From: an uncultured Nanoarchaeota archaeon
Lineage (GTDB): Archaea; Nanobdellota; Nanobdellia; Pacearchaeales; GW2011-AR1
Direction: 5' to 3'
Assembly: GCA_963743615.1 (NCBI GenBank)
Contig: CAVUQF010000002.1
Coordinates: 129,697-193,696 of the forward strand
Length of the DNA: 64,000 bases
A program made the translations under genes and the position numbers. Positions 7,884 to 63,944 of this stretch are shown here, piece after piece. The notes under the pieces are model-generated. The model was not told the origin of the DNA. It was given only the letters and a program-made list of their open reading frames with translations, and searched no databases. Position 1 is the stretch's first letter, and each line of letters starts with the position of its first letter.

Positions 7884-7945
7884 CTTTAGAGCAGCTGGTC
7901 AGCAATCTGATGATGCTATTTGTTTATAGAAAGGAACTCTCAGCT

Positions 7946-8554
7946 TCATTTTCTTCTTTTTTCATGCCTTTTCTTATGCCTTTCAAAAGATTTATTCAAA
8001 GAATCTCCAATATTGTAGAATAAAATCCTAAACTGATTTTCAACATCATCCCATCCAATATCTTTTCCTCTATTTGCTTTATTCAACTTTTCTCTTATTT
8101 TCTCCTTTTCTTTTTCCCATTTAATATCTCCAAGTTTTTTTAATTCAAATCCTTCTTTTGCCAATTTTGCATATCCCGCGATAAGTACAATTATGAAAAC
8201 GACGGCAGAAATTAGCCCTGGATGGATTAAAACTCCTGAATTTGTATAAATTTCCATAAACTGCCATATTTTATACAAGAACGAGACGATTATTGTGCTC
8301 AGTATCGCGCTTGTTATGGGTGCTAGAAGATTGAAAGGAGATTCAAAATTCCAAAAAATTTCATTTATTACCCCAAAGAAGAAAAGTGAAAAAAATAAGG
8401 GGATATTTGCATTGAAGAAGTTTATCACATTAGAATACACAGAATTCTGAACACTCGTTGCAAGTATGCCCGCAACTAGAATTAAAGTCACAAGGATAAT
8501 GAATCCGACGCTTCTCCCAATAATTATTGACAATGCAGAATGGTGTCTCTTCAT
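7946..8554 (-). CDS. Integral membrane protein, hypothetical
   Basis: Four predicted TM helices are followed by a C-terminal K/E/R-rich tail. Confidence 0.4.
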   Translation of the reverse strand: MKRHHSALSIIIGRSVGFIILVTLILVAGILATSVQNSVYSNVINFFNANIPLFFSLFFFGVINEIFWNFESPFNLLAPITSAILSTIIVSFLYKIWQFMEIYTNSGVLIHPGLISAVVFIIVLIAGYAKLAKEGFELKKLGDIKWEKEKEKIREKLNKANRGKDIGWDDVENQFRILFYNIGDSLNKSFERHKKRHEKRRK

Positions 8555-40782: not shown

Positions 40783-40940
40783 CCCCGCATAGCTCAGTGG
40801 TTAGAGCGCTTGGCTGTAGTTGCGAGACACTTTTAGTGTTTAACTAGGATGGATATTCCACAAGGAAATTAGATGAAGTCTGAAAAGCCAGAAGTTCAAC
40901 AGGACCCGAGAGATCCCCAGTTCGATTCTGGGTGCGGGGA
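40783..40940 (+). tRNA. tRNA-Tyr (anticodon GUA) with an approximately 85-nt intron at the canonical 37/38 position
   Basis: Exon 1 is 40783-40819. Its acceptor is CCCCGCA with a C1-G72 pair, the D-arm is GCUC/GAGC, and the anticodon arm is CUUGG-CUGUAG. The intron is about 40820-40904. Exon 2 is 40905-40940 with CCGAG, T-arm CCCAG-UUCGAUU-CUGGG, acceptor UGCGGGG and discriminator A. The intron boundaries are approximate. Confidence 0.65.
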
Positions 40941-57178: not shown

Positions 57179-58327
57179 ATGAATAAGGAGGGTGGAGGAA
57201 TTGTTATCTTCTATATCTTAATTTTTATTATCATATTGGGAAATGTTGGGAATATTATAGCTGATCCAACAATAATAGGAACACCCTCAAGTATGAATAT
57301 TTCTGCAGTAAACTCCTCTGGAACTAGAGTAACTTATCCATTACCAACTGCAACGGACAGTGCCGACATTACAGATCCTGTAGTTTGTATTCCAGTGTCA
57401 GGCTCAATATTTCCCATAAGAACTACATTCGTAACCTGTACTTCCCAAGATAGTAACAACGAAATAAATACTACCAAATTTTATGTAAACGTCACCGCCC
57501 CTACAACTCCTCCAATAATATCTGGAGTGCCAACAATATCACAGCAAGCTACATCTCCATCTGGGGCAGTTACAATTTATAGCTTACCAAATGCAACAGA
57601 TGTTTTTGGAAATCATGCTGCTGTTTCTTGTAATCCCCTATCTGGTTCATTATTTCCAATAGGAACAACAGGTGTAAATTGCACCGCAACAGATGTTTAT
57701 GGCAATAAAGCCACGACTTTGTTATATGTAGTCGTTGAAGCTCCAAAGAATCTTCCAAAGATATCTAGAGTCCCAGCAACTATCACAAAACAGGCTGCTT
57801 CATCTTCGGGGATATCAGTAGTTTATCCCTCCCCTACTGCAATTGATTTATATGGTAATAGCGTTGGTGTTTCATGCAATCCTCCATCTAGTTCAATATT
57901 CCATATAGGTGCAACAAATGTAAATTGCATCGCAATAGACTCTTACGGGAATGAGGTCACATCCTCATTTGACGTCATAATCACCGTTCCTAGAATTCTC
58001 CCAACAATAATAGGAACACCTTCAGATATAACTCAAACCGCAACAAATTCATCTGGTAATGTTATTATATATACAAATCCAACCGCGACGAACGAATTTG
58101 GAGCATCAATTCCCATAAGTTGTAGTCCCAAATCAGGATCACTCTTCCCGATTGGAACATCTGAAGTAACCTGCATGACAGAAGATTCTTATGGAAATAT
58201 CGCAATTTCACATTTTAGTATAATCATCGAAACAAAACTCGCAGAAATTTTAGAATTCTCTGGGATTGTTATAGTTCTTGTGTCAATAGTTATAATTATT
58301 GTATCAAAGAAAAGAAAATCTAAATAA
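57179..58327 (+). CDS. Surface protein with four tandem HYR-like domains and C-terminal TM anchor
   Basis: The module YPLPTATD...C.P.SGS.FPIGTT.V.C...D.YGN is repeated four times. A C-terminal TM (IVIVLVSIVIIIV) with a KKRKSK tail follows. Confidence 0.6.
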   Translation: MNKEGGGIVIFYILIFIIILGNVGNIIADPTIIGTPSSMNISAVNSSGTRVTYPLPTATDSADITDPVVCIPVSGSIFPIRTTFVTCTSQDSNNEINTTKFYVNVTAPTTPPIISGVPTISQQATSPSGAVTIYSLPNATDVFGNHAAVSCNPLSGSLFPIGTTGVNCTATDVYGNKATTLLYVVVEAPKNLPKISRVPATITKQAASSSGISVVYPSPTAIDLYGNSVGVSCNPPSSSIFHIGATNVNCIAIDSYGNEVTSSFDVIITVPRILPTIIGTPSDITQTATNSSGNVIIYTNPTATNEFGASIPISCSPKSGSLFPIGTSEVTCMTEDSYGNIAISHFSIIIETKLAEILEFSGIVIVLVSIVIIIVSKKRKSK

Positions 58328-59303
58328 TCTTTATACCTTTTAAGATCTCTTTAGCGTCTTTATATCCCATAGATATTGCCTTCTTTGCTTTGTCTGAAGA
58401 AAAATCTAAAACTCCAATAGGTAGTTTCTCTTTTGGATTAATTTCAATAATATTTAACCCCTCATAATTTTTATACTCATCGTATAACTTCTTTATCTTC
58501 TTAGTTCTTTTCTTAGAAAGTAGATTTGGGGGGAAGATTTTTGTCTTAAGTAGCTCCTTTAGCACATTTGCCAGTCTTATTTTTTCTCTTATTCCATTTA
58601 TCTCACTTAAATAAGAAGCGGTAAAAATAGTTTCAAGAACTCTCATCCCTGTATGAAATATACTTTTAGATTCAGAGCTCTCCGTTTCAGGAACGTTCAA
58701 AGAAACAGTAAAAAAAGTCTTGCACAATCCGGATTTAATTGCCTCATTTAATGGGAAATTATTTACAAAGCCACCGTCAACTAAGGGATTTGCTATTTCA
58801 TTCTTTTTTAACCCTCCAGATAATTTGTGAGAAGGAAAAATAATAGGAATTGAACAGGAAGACATTAAAGAGTGTATAATCTGCTCATAATCTTTAAAGT
58901 CTTTATTGACTATCTCTCGCTTGCTCTTGAGATCACATGAAATAACAATTAACTTTATTGAAGAATCGATTATCTTTTTGGCTGATTTTTTATCTATTTC
59001 CTCACGCACCAAGTTTTCTAAAGGAGAATTATTAAATAAAGCGCCTCTACCAAAAATATTCTGACTGAAACTTAAAACTCTCTTTGGGCTAATACTCTCC
59101 CAAAGTTCAGTGATTCTACTAATCTTCCCTGCTGCTATTAAAGATGCATTTAATGCCCCCACAGAAGTTCCTGCCGCAAGCTTAAAGGTTACGCCCGCTT
59201 CATTAAGCGCTTTTATAACGCCTGCTTCATAGGCTCCGCCAGTTCCACCTCCTGAAAGAACAATACCAAATCCTTCTTCAGAGTCCAAAGTTATTTCGGT
59301 CAT
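58320..59303 (-). CDS. Patatin-like phospholipase
   Basis: The motifs GGGTGGAYEAG (oxyanion) and GTSVGALNA (GxSxG) are present. Confidence 0.8.
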   Translation of the reverse strand: MTEITLDSEEGFGIVLSGGGTGGAYEAGVIKALNEAGVTFKLAAGTSVGALNASLIAAGKISRITELWESISPKRVLSFSQNIFGRGALFNNSPLENLVREEIDKKSAKKIIDSSIKLIVISCDLKSKREIVNKDFKDYEQIIHSLMSSCSIPIIFPSHKLSGGLKKNEIANPLVDGGFVNNFPLNEAIKSGLCKTFFTVSLNVPETESSESKSIFHTGMRVLETIFTASYLSEINGIREKIRLANVLKELLKTKIFPPNLLSKKRTKKIKKLYDEYKNYEGLNIIEINPKEKLPIGVLDFSSDKAKKAISMGYKDAKEILKGIKII

Positions 59304-59990: not shown

Positions 59991-60794
59991 CTAATTCTTA
60001 GGATCAATCTCTATTCCTGCCTTTATACCCAATTTTAAACCAGGATTACTGGAACTTAATCCAACCTTGCTTCCAAGGTTAGTTGTGCTTGTTATCTCTG
60101 AAAATTCTGCTCCACCATATAGTTCAACGAAATTGATAATCCCCTTGTCTTTAAGAGGAATATGGACTCCAACATTTAATGAATGATCAATATAAGTCCC
60201 CAAAGTATAATAATCATTTATATCAATCTTTGAAGTGATATTCATAGGCGCATTATTAACTGTATAAGTCTCAGTACCGCTGAACATTGAAACTTCATTC
60301 CCAAAACTAGCAGAGTATTCAGCAAAAAATATATCATCCAAAAAGGAGGCCCTTGCGAAAACACCCGGATTAAAAGAATATTGCGGCGTTTTTATCAAAC
60401 CATAACAACTTTCAGAGTTATCTATTTCCATGCCTTCTGTTACTACACCAATCCCAGAAGTTCCATTAGCCGAAAAATCTGCTTTTGGCCCTACCTTAAA
60501 GCTGAACCAGTCAAAATTAGGATTTCTATATTCTACACCGAGTCTAAGCTCTAAGCTTGCAGCACCAATAAAACCATTCAAACCCATATCTTGCTGTGGA
60601 CTATCTCTAAAGGGGTCACTAACATAATCTGGAACATGTTGTACCGAGAGTGAAGAAGAAGAATTTACATCAGCCGCTAATTGTCCATAAAAGTGAAAAT
60701 CTGAAGCACTTGCTTCTTTTACCGGAACAAAAAGCAAACTACCCGCGAGGACTGCTGCTGCCATTCCAGCCAGTCTGTTTTTCATGCTATTCAA
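59991..60794 (-). CDS. Secreted beta-barrel-like protein with bacterial-type signal peptide (paralog A)
   Basis: The signal peptide is MAAAVLAGSLLFVPVKEASA. Amphipathic beta-strand periodicity runs throughout. It shares motifs with the 60868 protein (KVGPKA, FARASF). Confidence 0.45.
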   Translation of the reverse strand: MNSMKNRLAGMAAAVLAGSLLFVPVKEASASDFHFYGQLAADVNSSSSLSVQHVPDYVSDPFRDSPQQDMGLNGFIGAASLELRLGVEYRNPNFDWFSFKVGPKADFSANGTSGIGVVTEGMEIDNSESCYGLIKTPQYSFNPGVFARASFLDDIFFAEYSASFGNEVSMFSGTETYTVNNAPMNITSKIDINDYYTLGTYIDHSLNVGVHIPLKDKGIINFVELYGGAEFSEITSTTNLGSKVGLSSSNPGLKLGIKAGIEIDPKN

Positions 60795-60867
60795 AACAGC
60801 AGGATATATATAAATCTTATGAAATGTAATTCTTATAAAGTTACAACAGAATTTTTAAAATTCAGAA

Positions 60868-61473
60868 TTATTGGGTTTCCATTCCGAACTCTATCCCAAT
60901 TAAAGGCTTGGCAATCAAAGCTTTACCAGCTTCTTGAAGATCCAATCCAGCAGAAACCTCGCCAAAACCACCATTCATCTTACCAGAAGATGCACCAAAC
61001 ATAGGAACATGAAATCCTGTCTTTGCCCTGTAATCAACACCAGTAGGCTCAGAAGAACCCAGAGTATATCCTTCTAAACTAGTAGAAACCTCGCCAAAAA
61101 CCATCTTTCTGAAAGCAGATGCCCTTGCAAAAAGGCCAAAATTTAGAGAAGGACCATAAGAAGAAACATCACCTTCCTGTGCCGGAAGAGACAAATATGC
61201 CTTAGGGCCAACCTTTAAATCAATTTTACCAAAATCATATCCTAAAGCGGCCTTCAACTCTATGCTACTATTCATAGGAGTTCCCTTGAAAGGGTCGTCA
61301 CCCATGCTAATGTTTCCAGCAGAGTTATTCTGAGCATAAGAAGAGGGACAATTATCTAGACCTGCTCCTGCTCCTACATAACCATAAAGACCTTCAGCAC
61401 CCAATGAAGCGGCAGATAATGCTGCTACCAAAGCAGAGGTACTTGCAATCTTTGCGATTGATCTATTTTTCAT
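60868..61473 (-). CDS. Secreted OMP-type beta-barrel-like protein (paralog B)
   Basis: The signal peptide ends ...AASLGA, followed by EGLYGYVGAGAGLD, which resembles the first strand of bacterial OmpA-like/OmpW 8-strand barrels. Alternating strands include IELKAALGYDFGKIDLKVG and SLNFGLFARASAF. Local GC is about 44%. Confidence 0.45.
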   Translation of the reverse strand: MKNRSIAKIASTSALVAALSAASLGAEGLYGYVGAGAGLDNCPSSYAQNNSAGNISMGDDPFKGTPMNSSIELKAALGYDFGKIDLKVGPKAYLSLPAQEGDVSSYGPSLNFGLFARASAFRKMVFGEVSTSLEGYTLGSSEPTGVDYRAKTGFHVPMFGASSGKMNGGFGEVSAGLDLQEAGKALIAKPLIGIEFGMETQ

Positions 61474-61602
61474 GTTTTTCAGAAGAATTGTGACTATTTA
61501 AATGTTGTGGAATGTAATTCCTATTCAGTTACTACAACTCTCTTTTTTAATTCAAACTCGCAAGTACAATAATATTTAAAAAATCTAGAACCTCTCTTAA
61601 TT

Positions 61603-63204
61603 ATGCACCGAAAGTACATCGTAGTAACGGGGGGAGTTCTTAGTGGTCTTGGAAAAGGTGTCGCTCTTGCAAGCATTGGAAATTTACTTTCTTCGACATA
61701 TAAGGTAATTCCAATTAAATGTGATGGTTATCTTAATGTAGATCCGGGGACCATGAATCCAATAGAGCATGGAGAAGTCTTTGTCCTTGATGACGGTACC
61801 GAAGTGGACATGGACTTTGGGCACTATGAAAGATTTCTTGGAATAAACTGCAAAAATGAATGGAATTTAACAATGGGGAAAGTCTTCAATGCAATCAGGG
61901 AAAAAGAGCGCAGAGGAGACTATCTTGGAAAAACGGTGCAGCTGATTCCTCATGTCTCTAACTATATTACTGAACATTACTTAAAAGTCGGTGAAGATGC
62001 TAATGCTGATGTCGTTTTGATTGAAATTGGAGGCACAGTGGGAGATATGGAAAGTGAACTGTTTATTGAGGCTGCCAGAAATCTTGCGAGAAGAGTGGGG
62101 AAAGAGAATATTATGTATGTACATCTAACTTATATCCCAATACCTTCAGGAGTAAACGAGCAAAAATCAAAACCAACACAGCAAAGTATTCAGATGTTGC
62201 GTCAGAGAGGGATAGAACCTGATTTGATCATTGCAAGATGCAGCGAAATGCTTACAGAGAACATTAAAAACAAAATCGCAATAAGTTGCAACTTAAATCC
62301 TCATGATATCTTAACAGGGCTTGATGTTGATAATCTTTACAAAATCCCTTTGCTATTTGAAGAGCAGGGAATTTGCAAAATTATTTCTAGAAAACTGAAT
62401 ATAACCGTCAATCCCAATCTTGAGAAAGTAAAGGTTCTGATTAATAATTTAGATAATGCCAAAAAAGAAGTTACGATTGCAATAGCAGGGAAGTATACCG
62501 CGTTAGGAGACGCTTATGCAAGTATAATTGAGGCGCTCCACCACTGCGCAGCACATCTCTCAACAAAAATAAACGTAAAATGGATTGAAACTAGCCAGAA
62601 CAATTTTGACTTTAACGGTATTCACGGTTTAATCGTCCCGGGAGCCTTTGGAAGCAGAGGAGCTGAGGGAAAAATTCTTGCAATAAAATATTGCCGTGAA
62701 AATAAAATCCCTTTTCTAGGGATTTGTTATGGTTTACAGATGGCGGTTGTTGAATTTGCCAGAAATGTATGTGGACTTTGTGCAAATAGCACTGAAATTG
62801 ATAAAAACTGTTCAGATCCAGTCATTAATATTTTGGAAGAGCAGAAGAAAGTAATGGATAAAGGAGGAACAATGAGATTAGGAGATTATCCCTCAATTAT
62901 TAGGGCAAATTCATTAGTGCAGGAGTTATATGGTTGTCAAGAGGTTCATGAAAGACATAGGCATCGTTATGAAGTAAATCCAAAATATCAAGAAATACTT
63001 GAAAACAAAGGTTTAATTCTATCCGGAAAATCCCCCGATCAAACTCTTGTTGAATTTATTGAATTATCAAAAGAAGAACATCCCTACTTTGTCGCAACAC
63101 AGGCGCATCCTGAGTTAAAGAGCAGCTTACTTAAACCAGCCCCCTTATTCTTAGGGTTAGTTAATGCTGCATTAAAATTTTCTGAGAAAAATCAGAATAT
63201 ATGA
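61603..63204 (+). CDS. pyrG: CTP synthase
   Basis: The N-terminus YIVVTGGVLSGLGKG belongs to the synthetase domain. A C-terminal GATase domain carries the GICYGLQ motif. Confidence 0.9.
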   Translation: MHRKYIVVTGGVLSGLGKGVALASIGNLLSSTYKVIPIKCDGYLNVDPGTMNPIEHGEVFVLDDGTEVDMDFGHYERFLGINCKNEWNLTMGKVFNAIREKERRGDYLGKTVQLIPHVSNYITEHYLKVGEDANADVVLIEIGGTVGDMESELFIEAARNLARRVGKENIMYVHLTYIPIPSGVNEQKSKPTQQSIQMLRQRGIEPDLIIARCSEMLTENIKNKIAISCNLNPHDILTGLDVDNLYKIPLLFEEQGICKIISRKLNITVNPNLEKVKVLINNLDNAKKEVTIAIAGKYTALGDAYASIIEALHHCAAHLSTKINVKWIETSQNNFDFNGIHGLIVPGAFGSRGAEGKILAIKYCRENKIPFLGICYGLQMAVVEFARNVCGLCANSTEIDKNCSDPVINILEEQKKVMDKGGTMRLGDYPSIIRANSLVQELYGCQEVHERHRHRYEVNPKYQEILENKGLILSGKSPDQTLVEFIELSKEEHPYFVATQAHPELKSSLLKPAPLFLGLVNAALKFSEKNQNI

Positions 63205-63944
63205 GAAAACCAGTTAACAATTGCATTCCACACGTTAACAATCCAACTTGAAGATTGTGTAGGCTGAGTACTTGCCGACGAACTATTATTCTCTTGTGAA
63301 ACAGGGGGAACATTCTGATTGGTGTTGTTTACAAATGTATTCCCCATTCCCGATGGAGAAGAAGAACTGCTGACGGGAATATATCCTGGCCCAGAGTATC
63401 CTATAACACTATATGAAGCAGTTGTAGTTGCCACATTTCCTGAATTACTTGTTACGCTGCATGAGTAAGAATATGCTCCAGGAACGGTTGTTATTGTTGA
63501 GGTTGGTGTTGATGACGCTACTCCAGAGAGTGCACTCCCAGAACAAGTGCACGTAACATTCTGACCAGGAGACAGTGAAGAGGGAGAGCAAGACGCAGAA
63601 ACTGCAGGTGTGCTTGAATCCATGAGCACAACAAAAGAGTTGTTTAATCCTGTATTATTAACACTATCATTAGCATAAACATTTACAACATTATTTCCAT
63701 TGGATAATCCTGTCAAGCTCAGAGTATTATTGCACCAGCCACTTGAAACAGCAACGGTTTGATTAGTCCCTCCATTGATATTCATAATGCACGCACTTCC
63801 GGTTATCCCAGATCCAGCATCGCTAACAAGAACATTTAAAGGTAAAGTAGAGGCGCTATTTTTGGCCGTTGCGTTTGTGTAAACAGGCAAAGTTATGGTT
63901 GGAGGCACAGCATCTACTTCGGTATTCCATGAACTAAGCGTCAT
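63192..63944 (-). CDS. S/T-rich surface protein, likely 5'-truncated by the window edge (paralog of 2306..3736)
   Basis: The protein is S/T/N-rich. It shares the module NVTCTCSGSALSGVASS...YSYSCSV.SNSGN...ASYSV with the 2306 protein. Confidence 0.4.
   Translation of the reverse strand: MTLSSWNTEVDAVPPTITLPVYTNATAKNSASTLPLNVLVSDAGSGITGSACIMNINGGTNQTVAVSSGWCNNTLSLTGLSNGNNVVNVYANDSVNNTGLNNSFVVLMDSSTPAVSASCSPSSLSPGQNVTCTCSGSALSGVASSTPTSTITTVPGAYSYSCSVTSNSGNVATTTASYSVIGYSGPGYIPVSSSSSPSGMGNTFVNNTNQNVPPVSQENNSSSASTQPTQSSSWIVNVWNAIVNWFSHIF

Follow-up and report, generated by a model that had tools for sequence, protein, structure and literature searches.

A tandem pair of predicted outer-membrane-type beta-barrel genes in a DPANN archaeon

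The subject of this report is a pair of adjacent genes on the minus strand of a 64,000-nt stretch of DNA from an uncultured Nanoarchaeota archaeon (contig CAVUQF010000002.1 of assembly GCA_963743615.1, positions 129,697 to 193,696), here called the window. Gene A (P0001; 60868..61473, minus strand), recognized as an open reading frame (ORF), encodes a putatively exported protein of 201 aa, predicted to fold as an 8-stranded beta-barrel with short loops. Gene B (P0005; 59991..60785, minus strand), supported by an ORF call and by database copies, encodes a 264-aa paralog. Called mechanically, the gene B ORF covers 59991-60794 and begins at a TTG, giving 267 aa with 3 extra codons; the ATG at 60785 (264 aa) is the start used by gene callers and by the database copies and homologs. 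That these neighbouring minus-strand ORFs are paralogs had been stated in an earlier note made from the letters of the DNA, and BLASTP agreed (E = 3e-7); at 26% identity the two have diverged considerably, and no further paralog of either was found within the 64-kb window. The gene pair is native to a tiny, symbiotic-type DPANN (Nanoarchaeia) archaeon and, on the predicted structures, the description that suits it best is that of a small outer-membrane barrel variant with no entry in Pfam.

Sec signal peptides with Ala-rich cleavage regions, also claimed in that note, were evident in both products. The gene A signal peptide comprises aa 1-26 (61396..61473, minus strand; MKNRSIAKIASTSALVAALSAASLGA, cleaved before EG) and that of gene B aa 1-27 (60705..60785, minus strand; ...LLFVPVKEASA/SDF, a classic AxA site). 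In each, a basic n-region is followed by a hydrophobic h-region and then by an Ala-rich c-region (...SLGA/EG and ...EASA/SD), and the same three regions with AxA-type sites were read in all homologs. Both products thus appear to carry a Sec signal peptide of the signal peptidase I type. Models by AlphaFold 2 (AF2) placed helices in these regions (residues 5-22 in gene A, 5-18 in gene B), both with a low predicted local distance difference test (pLDDT) score, and the first strand of gene A begins 2 residues past the predicted cleavage site. The two sequences show no lipobox, helical anchor, or C-terminal sorting (archaeosortase) signal.

Structure prediction returned eight-stranded barrels, in keeping with the barrel-like character that had been suspected. 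The gene A model, built on a 5-sequence multiple sequence alignment (MSA), reached an overall pLDDT of 67.8 and a predicted template modelling (pTM) score of 0.62, with strands (residues 29-41, 67-80, 84-96, 109-120, 125-136, 145-159, 168-182, and 185-200) at pLDDT 85-90. The gene B model, built on 23 sequences, was better (pLDDT 82.7, pTM 0.78) and contained the same eight-strand meander, its first and last strands each at pLDDT ~95. Turns T1, T2, and T3 are 3, 4, and 8 residues long and share one side of the barrel with both termini (1-8 residues); loops L1-L4 are long and variable and occupy the opposite side, a geometry that resembles that of outer-membrane proteins. Strand number, strand order, and this asymmetry of short turns and long loops are identical between the paralogs, which differ mostly in loop length. 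Both models thus describe eight antiparallel amphipathic strands in a nearest-neighbour meander, with the termini on the short-turn side. In gene B, strands 4-6 are 25-29 residues long and make a projecting hairpin. Aligned with gene A, this long beta-hairpin (aa 153-210; 60156..60329, minus strand; strands of 25 and 29 residues) is inserted sequence; Ser, Thr, and Asn are abundant in its outer half, an N-I-T sequon sits at the tip, and the hairpin reaches past the predicted hydrophobic belt.

When the models were compared with the PDB by Foldseek, the top-ranked matches for both were outer-membrane barrels of bacteria, among them OmpA, NspA, Ail, OmpX, and OmpT. For gene A the top matches were NspA, Ail, the OmpA transmembrane domain, OmpX, OprH, and PagL; for gene B they were OmpA, Pla, NspA, pOmpT, and Ail, with E values of 2e-4 to 3e-3 and probabilities up to 1.00.

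AlphaFold might have drawn these barrels from residue alternation, in which case the proteins would be amphipathic, beta-rich, S-layer-associated molecules forming open sheets, sandwiches, or fibrils. The modest template modelling (TM) scores against real outer-membrane proteins (0.3-0.55) and the shallow alignment and overall pLDDT behind the gene A model both leave room for this reading. We nevertheless consider it unlikely: the gene B model is good by both scores, the two strands that would form free edges in an open sheet are its first and last, both at ~95, the architecture is alike in the two paralogs, and bacterial relatives (described below) end in the C-terminal motif of outer-membrane proteins (OMPs).

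Dyad-repeat amphipathic strands, which the earlier note had also seen, run throughout both proteins, and the pattern is conserved across 19 homologs; the 19-sequence family alignment was used to compare the two faces. The hydrophobic face (45 columns) has a mean Kyte-Doolittle value of +2.62, contains <1% D/E/K/R, and is variable (entropy 2.07; 3 columns >=70% conserved), with residues interchanging freely among L, I, F, V, and A. Conservation is significantly higher on the polar face (43 columns; entropy 1.56; 16 columns >=70% conserved; Mann-Whitney p=0.005), which is 21.5% Gly, 12.6% Ser, and 36% charged. Transmembrane barrels are marked by small and charged residues that are conserved and face inward, and by variable aliphatic residues outside; the barrels of lipocalins, avidin, and YceI reverse this pattern. 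Because the polar face is the conserved one and the hydrophobic face is variable and almost uncharged, the pattern fits a membrane-type rather than a soluble barrel, and the hydrophobic face would point outward into lipid. Three other details of the sequences agree with this. Followed from the turn side, gene B strands present 5-7 alternating hydrophobic residues, about one bilayer thickness, and then become Ser/Thr/Asn-rich. Aromatic residues of gene B (F30, Y86, F94, F148, and F153) gather at the turn-side boundary, and all N-glycosylation sequons (N-X-S/T) outside the signal peptide lie in long loops.

These data bear directly on a second alternative, in which secreted, soluble, eight-stranded barrels like those of lipocalins or YceI would capture host lipids in a cavity lined by the hydrophobic face. 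Such a carrier would suit a lipid-auxotrophic DPANN cell, and close relatives conserve a neighbouring gene for a patatin-like phospholipase (58320..59303, minus strand; Pfam Patatin E=4e-32). Dyad amphipathicity is by itself silent on which face is turned inward, and neither the missing terminal aromatic residue nor the lack of a BAM-like insertase gene in the regions read (both discussed below) would trouble a soluble protein. The conservation pattern, however, is the reverse of that of a soluble core, with Gly concentrated on the conserved face, and by our estimate 45 mostly large hydrophobic positions on strands of 12-16 residues would be too many for an n=8 barrel to enclose. The top 50 Foldseek matches of either model included no lipocalin, avidin, or YceI structure, nor was there a Pfam match to YceI or lipocalin. 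The patatin has no signal peptide, and its adjacency to the barrel gene or genes, kept in loci L001-L003 and L012, is absent in more distant members. We judge the lipid carrier to be quite unlikely and return to the membrane barrel.

Since conserved Gly, Ser, and charged residues would fill the interior, no large pore is expected. This affects a third alternative, in which the barrels are offensive effectors that insert into the membrane of a partner cell and there oligomerize or perturb it, acting as a porin- or toxin-like conduit for metabolites or lipids. DPANN cells need host contact (PMC11329633). With no lipobox, helical anchor, or archaeosortase signal, the mature protein would be free after export, and the very short turns and termini would let that side lead insertion; the rapid divergence described below would also fit. 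Filled, charged eight-stranded barrels such as OmpA and OmpX, however, make no useful pores, and there is no evidence of oligomerization. A pore or toxin role is a variant of the membrane-barrel model that is less likely for a filled eight-stranded barrel, and as a full explanation we give it a distinctly poor chance.

The genes around the predicted barrel pair are archaeal, as had been noted: the window encodes a thermosome (Cpn60_TCP1, 584 bits), an AglB/STT3 oligosaccharyltransferase, class I and class II aminoacyl-tRNA synthetases, and an intron-containing tRNA. The tRNA (40783-40940, plus strand) measures 158 nt by Rfam and was missed by ARAGORN; its span implies that ~85 nt of intron follow the anticodon loop. 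The possibility of a chimeric contig, also raised earlier, was examined through other assemblies. At least 13 contigs, assembled independently from different samples and by different assemblers (in ENA, Logan, and NCBI), encode a protein identical to the 201-aa product and carry the same arrangement. CTP synthase lay upstream in 6/6 places displayed, from six separate samples, and the downstream order (264-aa paralog, histidine phosphatase, patatin, HYR protein, DEAD helicase) was the same in the 5/5 places where the contig reached downstream. Sister genome GCA_049288015.1, named 'Candidatus Nanoarchaeia archaeon' by NCBI, has one ortholog in a syntenic neighbourhood, and a search for related loci with the close subfamily returned only this genome. 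Window and sister-species sequences agreed less for the barrel protein (50% identity) than for the patatin (72%), the DEAD helicase (76%), or AglB (80%).

Base composition was less unusual than had been thought. A local GC content of about 44% had been given; measurement gave 38.6% over the pair, with 42.1% and 37.7% for the single genes, compared to 34.8% for the window. Codon positions 1 and 2 account for the excess, a consequence of the high Gly, Ala, and Ser content of the proteins. At third codon positions, GC content (GC3) is 26-27% in genes A and B, against a window mean of 29 +/- 3%; composition therefore shows no trace of foreign DNA, and GC content was dropped as a signal of transfer.

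The expression signals of both genes are archaeal. A TATA-like box precedes each ATG by 21 nt (TTTAAATA at 61495..61502 for gene A, with leaderless-type spacing; TTTATATA at 60807..60814 for gene B; both minus strand), and reading of the sequence upstream of genes A and B found no Shine-Dalgarno sequence. Comparison of upstream regions revealed a conserved motif in gene A (TTGTAGTAACTGAATAGGAATTACATTCC; 61509..61537, minus strand) and its counterpart in gene B (TGTTGTAACTTTATAAGAATTACATTTC; 60821..60848, minus strand). This motif of ~29 nt, TGTAGTAAC-N8-GGAAYTACATTCC, lies directly upstream of the TATA box and is common to both paralogs and to the ortholog of the sister species (L001, about 7935-7965); it may be the binding site of a transcription regulator. 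Over 70 nt of upstream sequence, gene A matched gene B at 46/70 positions and the L001 ortholog at 52/70, where other upstream regions gave a background of 23 +/- 4.7 matches (maximum 45). The duplication therefore took in the promoter.

Because of the repeated arrangement, the synteny in the sister species, the host-like GC3, and the archaeal TATA promoters, mis-assembly and recent import are effectively excluded: the idea of bacterial DNA in an archaeal bin, which could appeal to a typically bacterial type of fold, a slightly raised GC content, and distant homologs on bacterial contigs, is largely refuted by those same four observations, and by the lack of any close bacterial homolog among 1.84 billion representatives, and is hardly credible.

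The family to which this native pair belongs is tiny, uncharacterized, and missing from Pfam. In a word-index search of 5.8 billion proteins, the 201-aa protein had 4 relatives and the 264-aa protein had 1. Only 18 proteins, all with a signal peptide and none annotated, came out of an exhaustive profile search of the 1.84 billion representatives by HMMER (E down to 1e-13 for long forms), and scanning metagenomes with the long-form subfamily contributed a further 21 loci. Members with readable flanks adjoin archaeal genes. The L010 member adjoins a DEAD helicase and a GTPase orthologous to window genes; the L014 member adjoins a seryl-tRNA synthetase 71% identical to that of the window organism; and the L017 member adjoins aEF-2 (857 bits). 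Several loci from the metagenome scan are archaeal too, their members lying beside EF-1alpha (612 bits) and archaeal DnaG (L027), archaeal RecJ, RadA, and Bud32 (L021), Bud32 (L019 and L020), or Spt5, prefoldin, and ZPR1 (L026). At L012 all that is left of the short, 201-type paralog is a C-terminal remnant of 78 aa (P0008, 2037-2273; cluster member P0028) upstream of an intact long paralog, which indicates turnover of genes in the tandem array.

Long forms of about 270-350 aa occur on archaeal and bacterial contigs (L019-L039, P0009, and P0013-P0020). They are homologous to the window proteins, with the same signal peptide and strand layout, and in predicted loops they share three very strongly conserved motifs, VPEYIRNVPxHPDD, ERNYxNxPGTxxRGxGAALTYY, and ENGWDRYxxLE, that the shorter window proteins have lost and that are in no Pfam family. 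Conserved loops are unusual for outer-membrane proteins and suggest a binding or catalytic site in the long forms.

Three of the loci are assigned to bacteria with differing security. The L030 contig (44% GC) is bacterial on its gene content, which includes TypA (583 bits), peptide deformylase and HPF above cut-offs, Fmt, and CspA. The L023 contig is probably bacterial, with phosphoglycerate kinase next to a bacterial-type triosephosphate isomerase, and L037 is taken as bacterial solely through its likeness to the L030 protein. The L030 and L037 proteins end in ...GIVYRF and ...FFGRF, the canonical OMP ending; none of the archaeal members checked has a C-terminal Phe, and in most of them the last residues are polar (...ETQ, ...DPKN, ...NTKK). 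A hidden Markov model (HMM) of the window type matched the long archaeal forms at 1e-27 to 1e-47, and these in turn matched L030 by tblastn at 2e-17. In a neighbour-joining tree, the window-type proteins and most long archaeal forms fell into one group, while a second group mixed archaeal and bacterial members; the tree is too shallow to give the direction of transfer. The nearest homologs in the profile search were all on archaeal or low-GC contigs. Of the earlier suggestion of horizontal acquisition from bacteria, what survives is an old event, consistent with distant homologs on bacterial contigs that end in ...YRF; a recent one does not, in view of the native GC3, the archaeal promoters, and the diversity that the family has reached among DPANN lineages.

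Assignment to a known sequence family did not hold up. The first mature segment of the pair, EGLYGYVGAGAGLD, had been likened to the first strand of OmpA, OmpW, and opacity-family barrels; the window proteins gave no significant sequence match in support of this likeness or of membership in any of those sequence families. The family consensus did not match Pfam, and hhalign of the family against E. coli OmpX gave no match. The closest approach was to PF13505 (OMP_b-brl, clan MBB): P0006, an ortholog of the 264-aa protein, scored 27.2 bits (E=5e-6, strands 4-8), nearly reaching the 28.7-bit gathering cut-off. Two further members had faint matches to PF13568 and PF13505, and no match to PF13505 was found for the window proteins (E<=10), the family consensus, or 30 other members. 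The core of the earlier note, a barrel-like pair in an archaeal genome, thus stands in its essentials, without the GC clue and the specific family assignment.

Considered as a whole, the reading that we favor, with somewhat more confidence than doubt, is that duplicated genes native to a DPANN archaeon encode exported OmpX-like barrels that go back to an old inter-domain transfer and serve as lipid-embedded anchors for loops. The proposed sequence of events would be as follows: at some distant time, a transfer between domains, probably from bacteria, would have brought the family into DPANN archaea. There it would have been inherited vertically and diversified rapidly within the archaeal lineage. 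In a host without the beta-barrel assembly machinery (BAM), the C-terminal aromatic residue that bacterial BAM recognizes would have been lost. In the present organism, the exported barrel would become embedded, unaided by BAM, in a lipid layer that lies beyond the cytoplasmic membrane, either the archaeon's own outer membrane or the membrane of an attached partner cell. Insertion would be spontaneous; small barrels such as OmpA and OmpX are known to insert spontaneously in vitro. Once in place, the barrel would anchor variable loops for cell-cell contact, an adhesin or anchor role like that of Ail, OmpX, NspA, and Opa. A role in surface contact fits because the protein has diverged faster than its neighbours, the paralogs differ in loop length, and L012 retains a remnant. 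Double membranes have been reported in Ignicoccus, the ARMAN cells (DPANN), Altiarchaeum, and Methanomassiliicoccus (PMC4243693; PMC8871954).

Several observations weigh against this interpretation. All of the structural claims are predictions, with barrel closure and the direction of the faces read from sequence conservation, and Foldseek superpositions were moderate (TM 0.3-0.55, rmsd 6-12 A). Searches of Pfam, NCBIfam, and PDB by phmmer and profile methods returned no significant sequence match for the window proteins. These proteins end in ...GIEFGMETQ (A) and ...GIEIDPKN (B) and so lack the terminal aromatic beta-signal for BAM recognition, and no BAM-like/Omp85 gene or other conserved partner gene was found in the window or the flanks of related loci. 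When the window-type group was compared directly with L030 and L037 by hhalign, the probability was only 32%, so the link to bacteria is transitive, through the long archaeal forms. The adhesin role is proposed by analogy with structural neighbours. The cultivated DPANN imaged so far have a cytoplasmic membrane and an S-layer and make host contact via dedicated structures (PMC11329633).

The family nevertheless appears to be vertically inherited and diversifying, and to show the full sequence logic of OMP barrels minus the BAM signal. The more general proposition, that a DPANN lineage keeps and rapidly diversifies BAM-independent membrane barrels of bacterial OMP descent, either in an outer lipid membrane of its own with a beta-barrel proteome or, as self-inserting barrels, in the membrane of a partner, is one that we offer tentatively, with more doubt than belief. 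If true, it would make this family the first of its transmembrane beta-barrel type to operate in Archaea. Such barrels count as a defining trait of bacterial outer membranes and of organelles descended from these, and we know of no demonstration of one in an archaeon, nor did we find any in the literature searched. The genes would offer a clonable handle on whether uncultivated DPANN have a second membrane, how they physically engage their partners, and whether small barrels can manage without an Omp85 insertase. The family would also document gene flow between bacteria and DPANN for an envelope protein.

Comparison with known systems places the pair closest to OmpA-TM (1bxw), OmpX (1qj9), Ail (3qra), NspA (1p4t), OprH, and PagL. 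Like these, the window proteins have a Sec signal and, on the predicted structures, eight long up-down antiparallel strands, a hydrophobic belt that would lie outside a polar, Gly-rich, charged interior, and short turns and termini opposite long loops; the protruding sheet of gene B resembles the 'fishing rod' of OmpX. Unlike them, they belong to an archaeal host, have no detectable sequence homology, end in a polar C-terminus (the bacterial long forms keep a terminal Phe), and superpose at the limited TM scores given above. Lipocalins, avidin, and YceI are likewise secreted barrels of eight antiparallel strands and may have the connection to lipids in common with the pair; their pattern of conservation and polarity is the reverse. 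Other archaeal proteins proposed for a second membrane, Ihomp1 of Ignicoccus and the predicted PopA-like protein of Altiarchaeales, are unrelated in sequence to the gene A/B family. Ihomp1 is a small alpha-helical pore protein. The PopA-like case concerns a different, oligomeric, porin-like superfamily, a possible distant relative of PopA having been mentioned in Altiarchaeales (PMC12228718).

Additional barrel-like genes were encountered near family members. Gly-rich ORFs with signal peptides occur at L034 (6824-7549), L033 (1117-1842), and L022 (4208-4891); the L034 neighbour has a signal peptide near-identical to that of the family member, yet it was undetected by the family HMM. The repertoire of envelope barrels may thus be larger than the gene A/B family. 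An apparently conserved neighbour gene of 88-90 aa in several loci was set aside when its products proved to be unrelated proteins, and an Rfam scan of the related loci found only tRNAs and was of no help in assigning domains.

Some features of the neighbouring genes are also recorded. Operon coupling between the patatin and the barrels was considered and dropped: in addition to the missing signal peptide and the adjacency lost in distant members, they are separated by a histidine-phosphatase gene that has a TATA box of its own. An ester-lipid hydrolase is odd for an ether-lipid organism, and the patatin hints at the use of bacterial-type lipids. The HYR protein (57179-58327, plus strand) is a surface protein with a signal peptide, four HYR (hyalin-repeat) domains, and a C-terminal membrane anchor; HYR domains are known chiefly from animals and some bacteria. 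Upstream of gene A, CTP synthase (window 61603-63204) is called as two ORFs in L007, L008, and L009, three assemblies of the same organism, and as one 533-aa ORF in the other assemblies; the split calls represent either strain-level frameshifts or assembly errors. Convergent with this gene (pyrG), and overlapping its 3' end by 13 nt (63192-63204), is the gene for a 408-aa, Ser/Thr/Asn-rich secreted protein with no family match, the C-terminal part of which lies within the window (63192-63944, minus strand).

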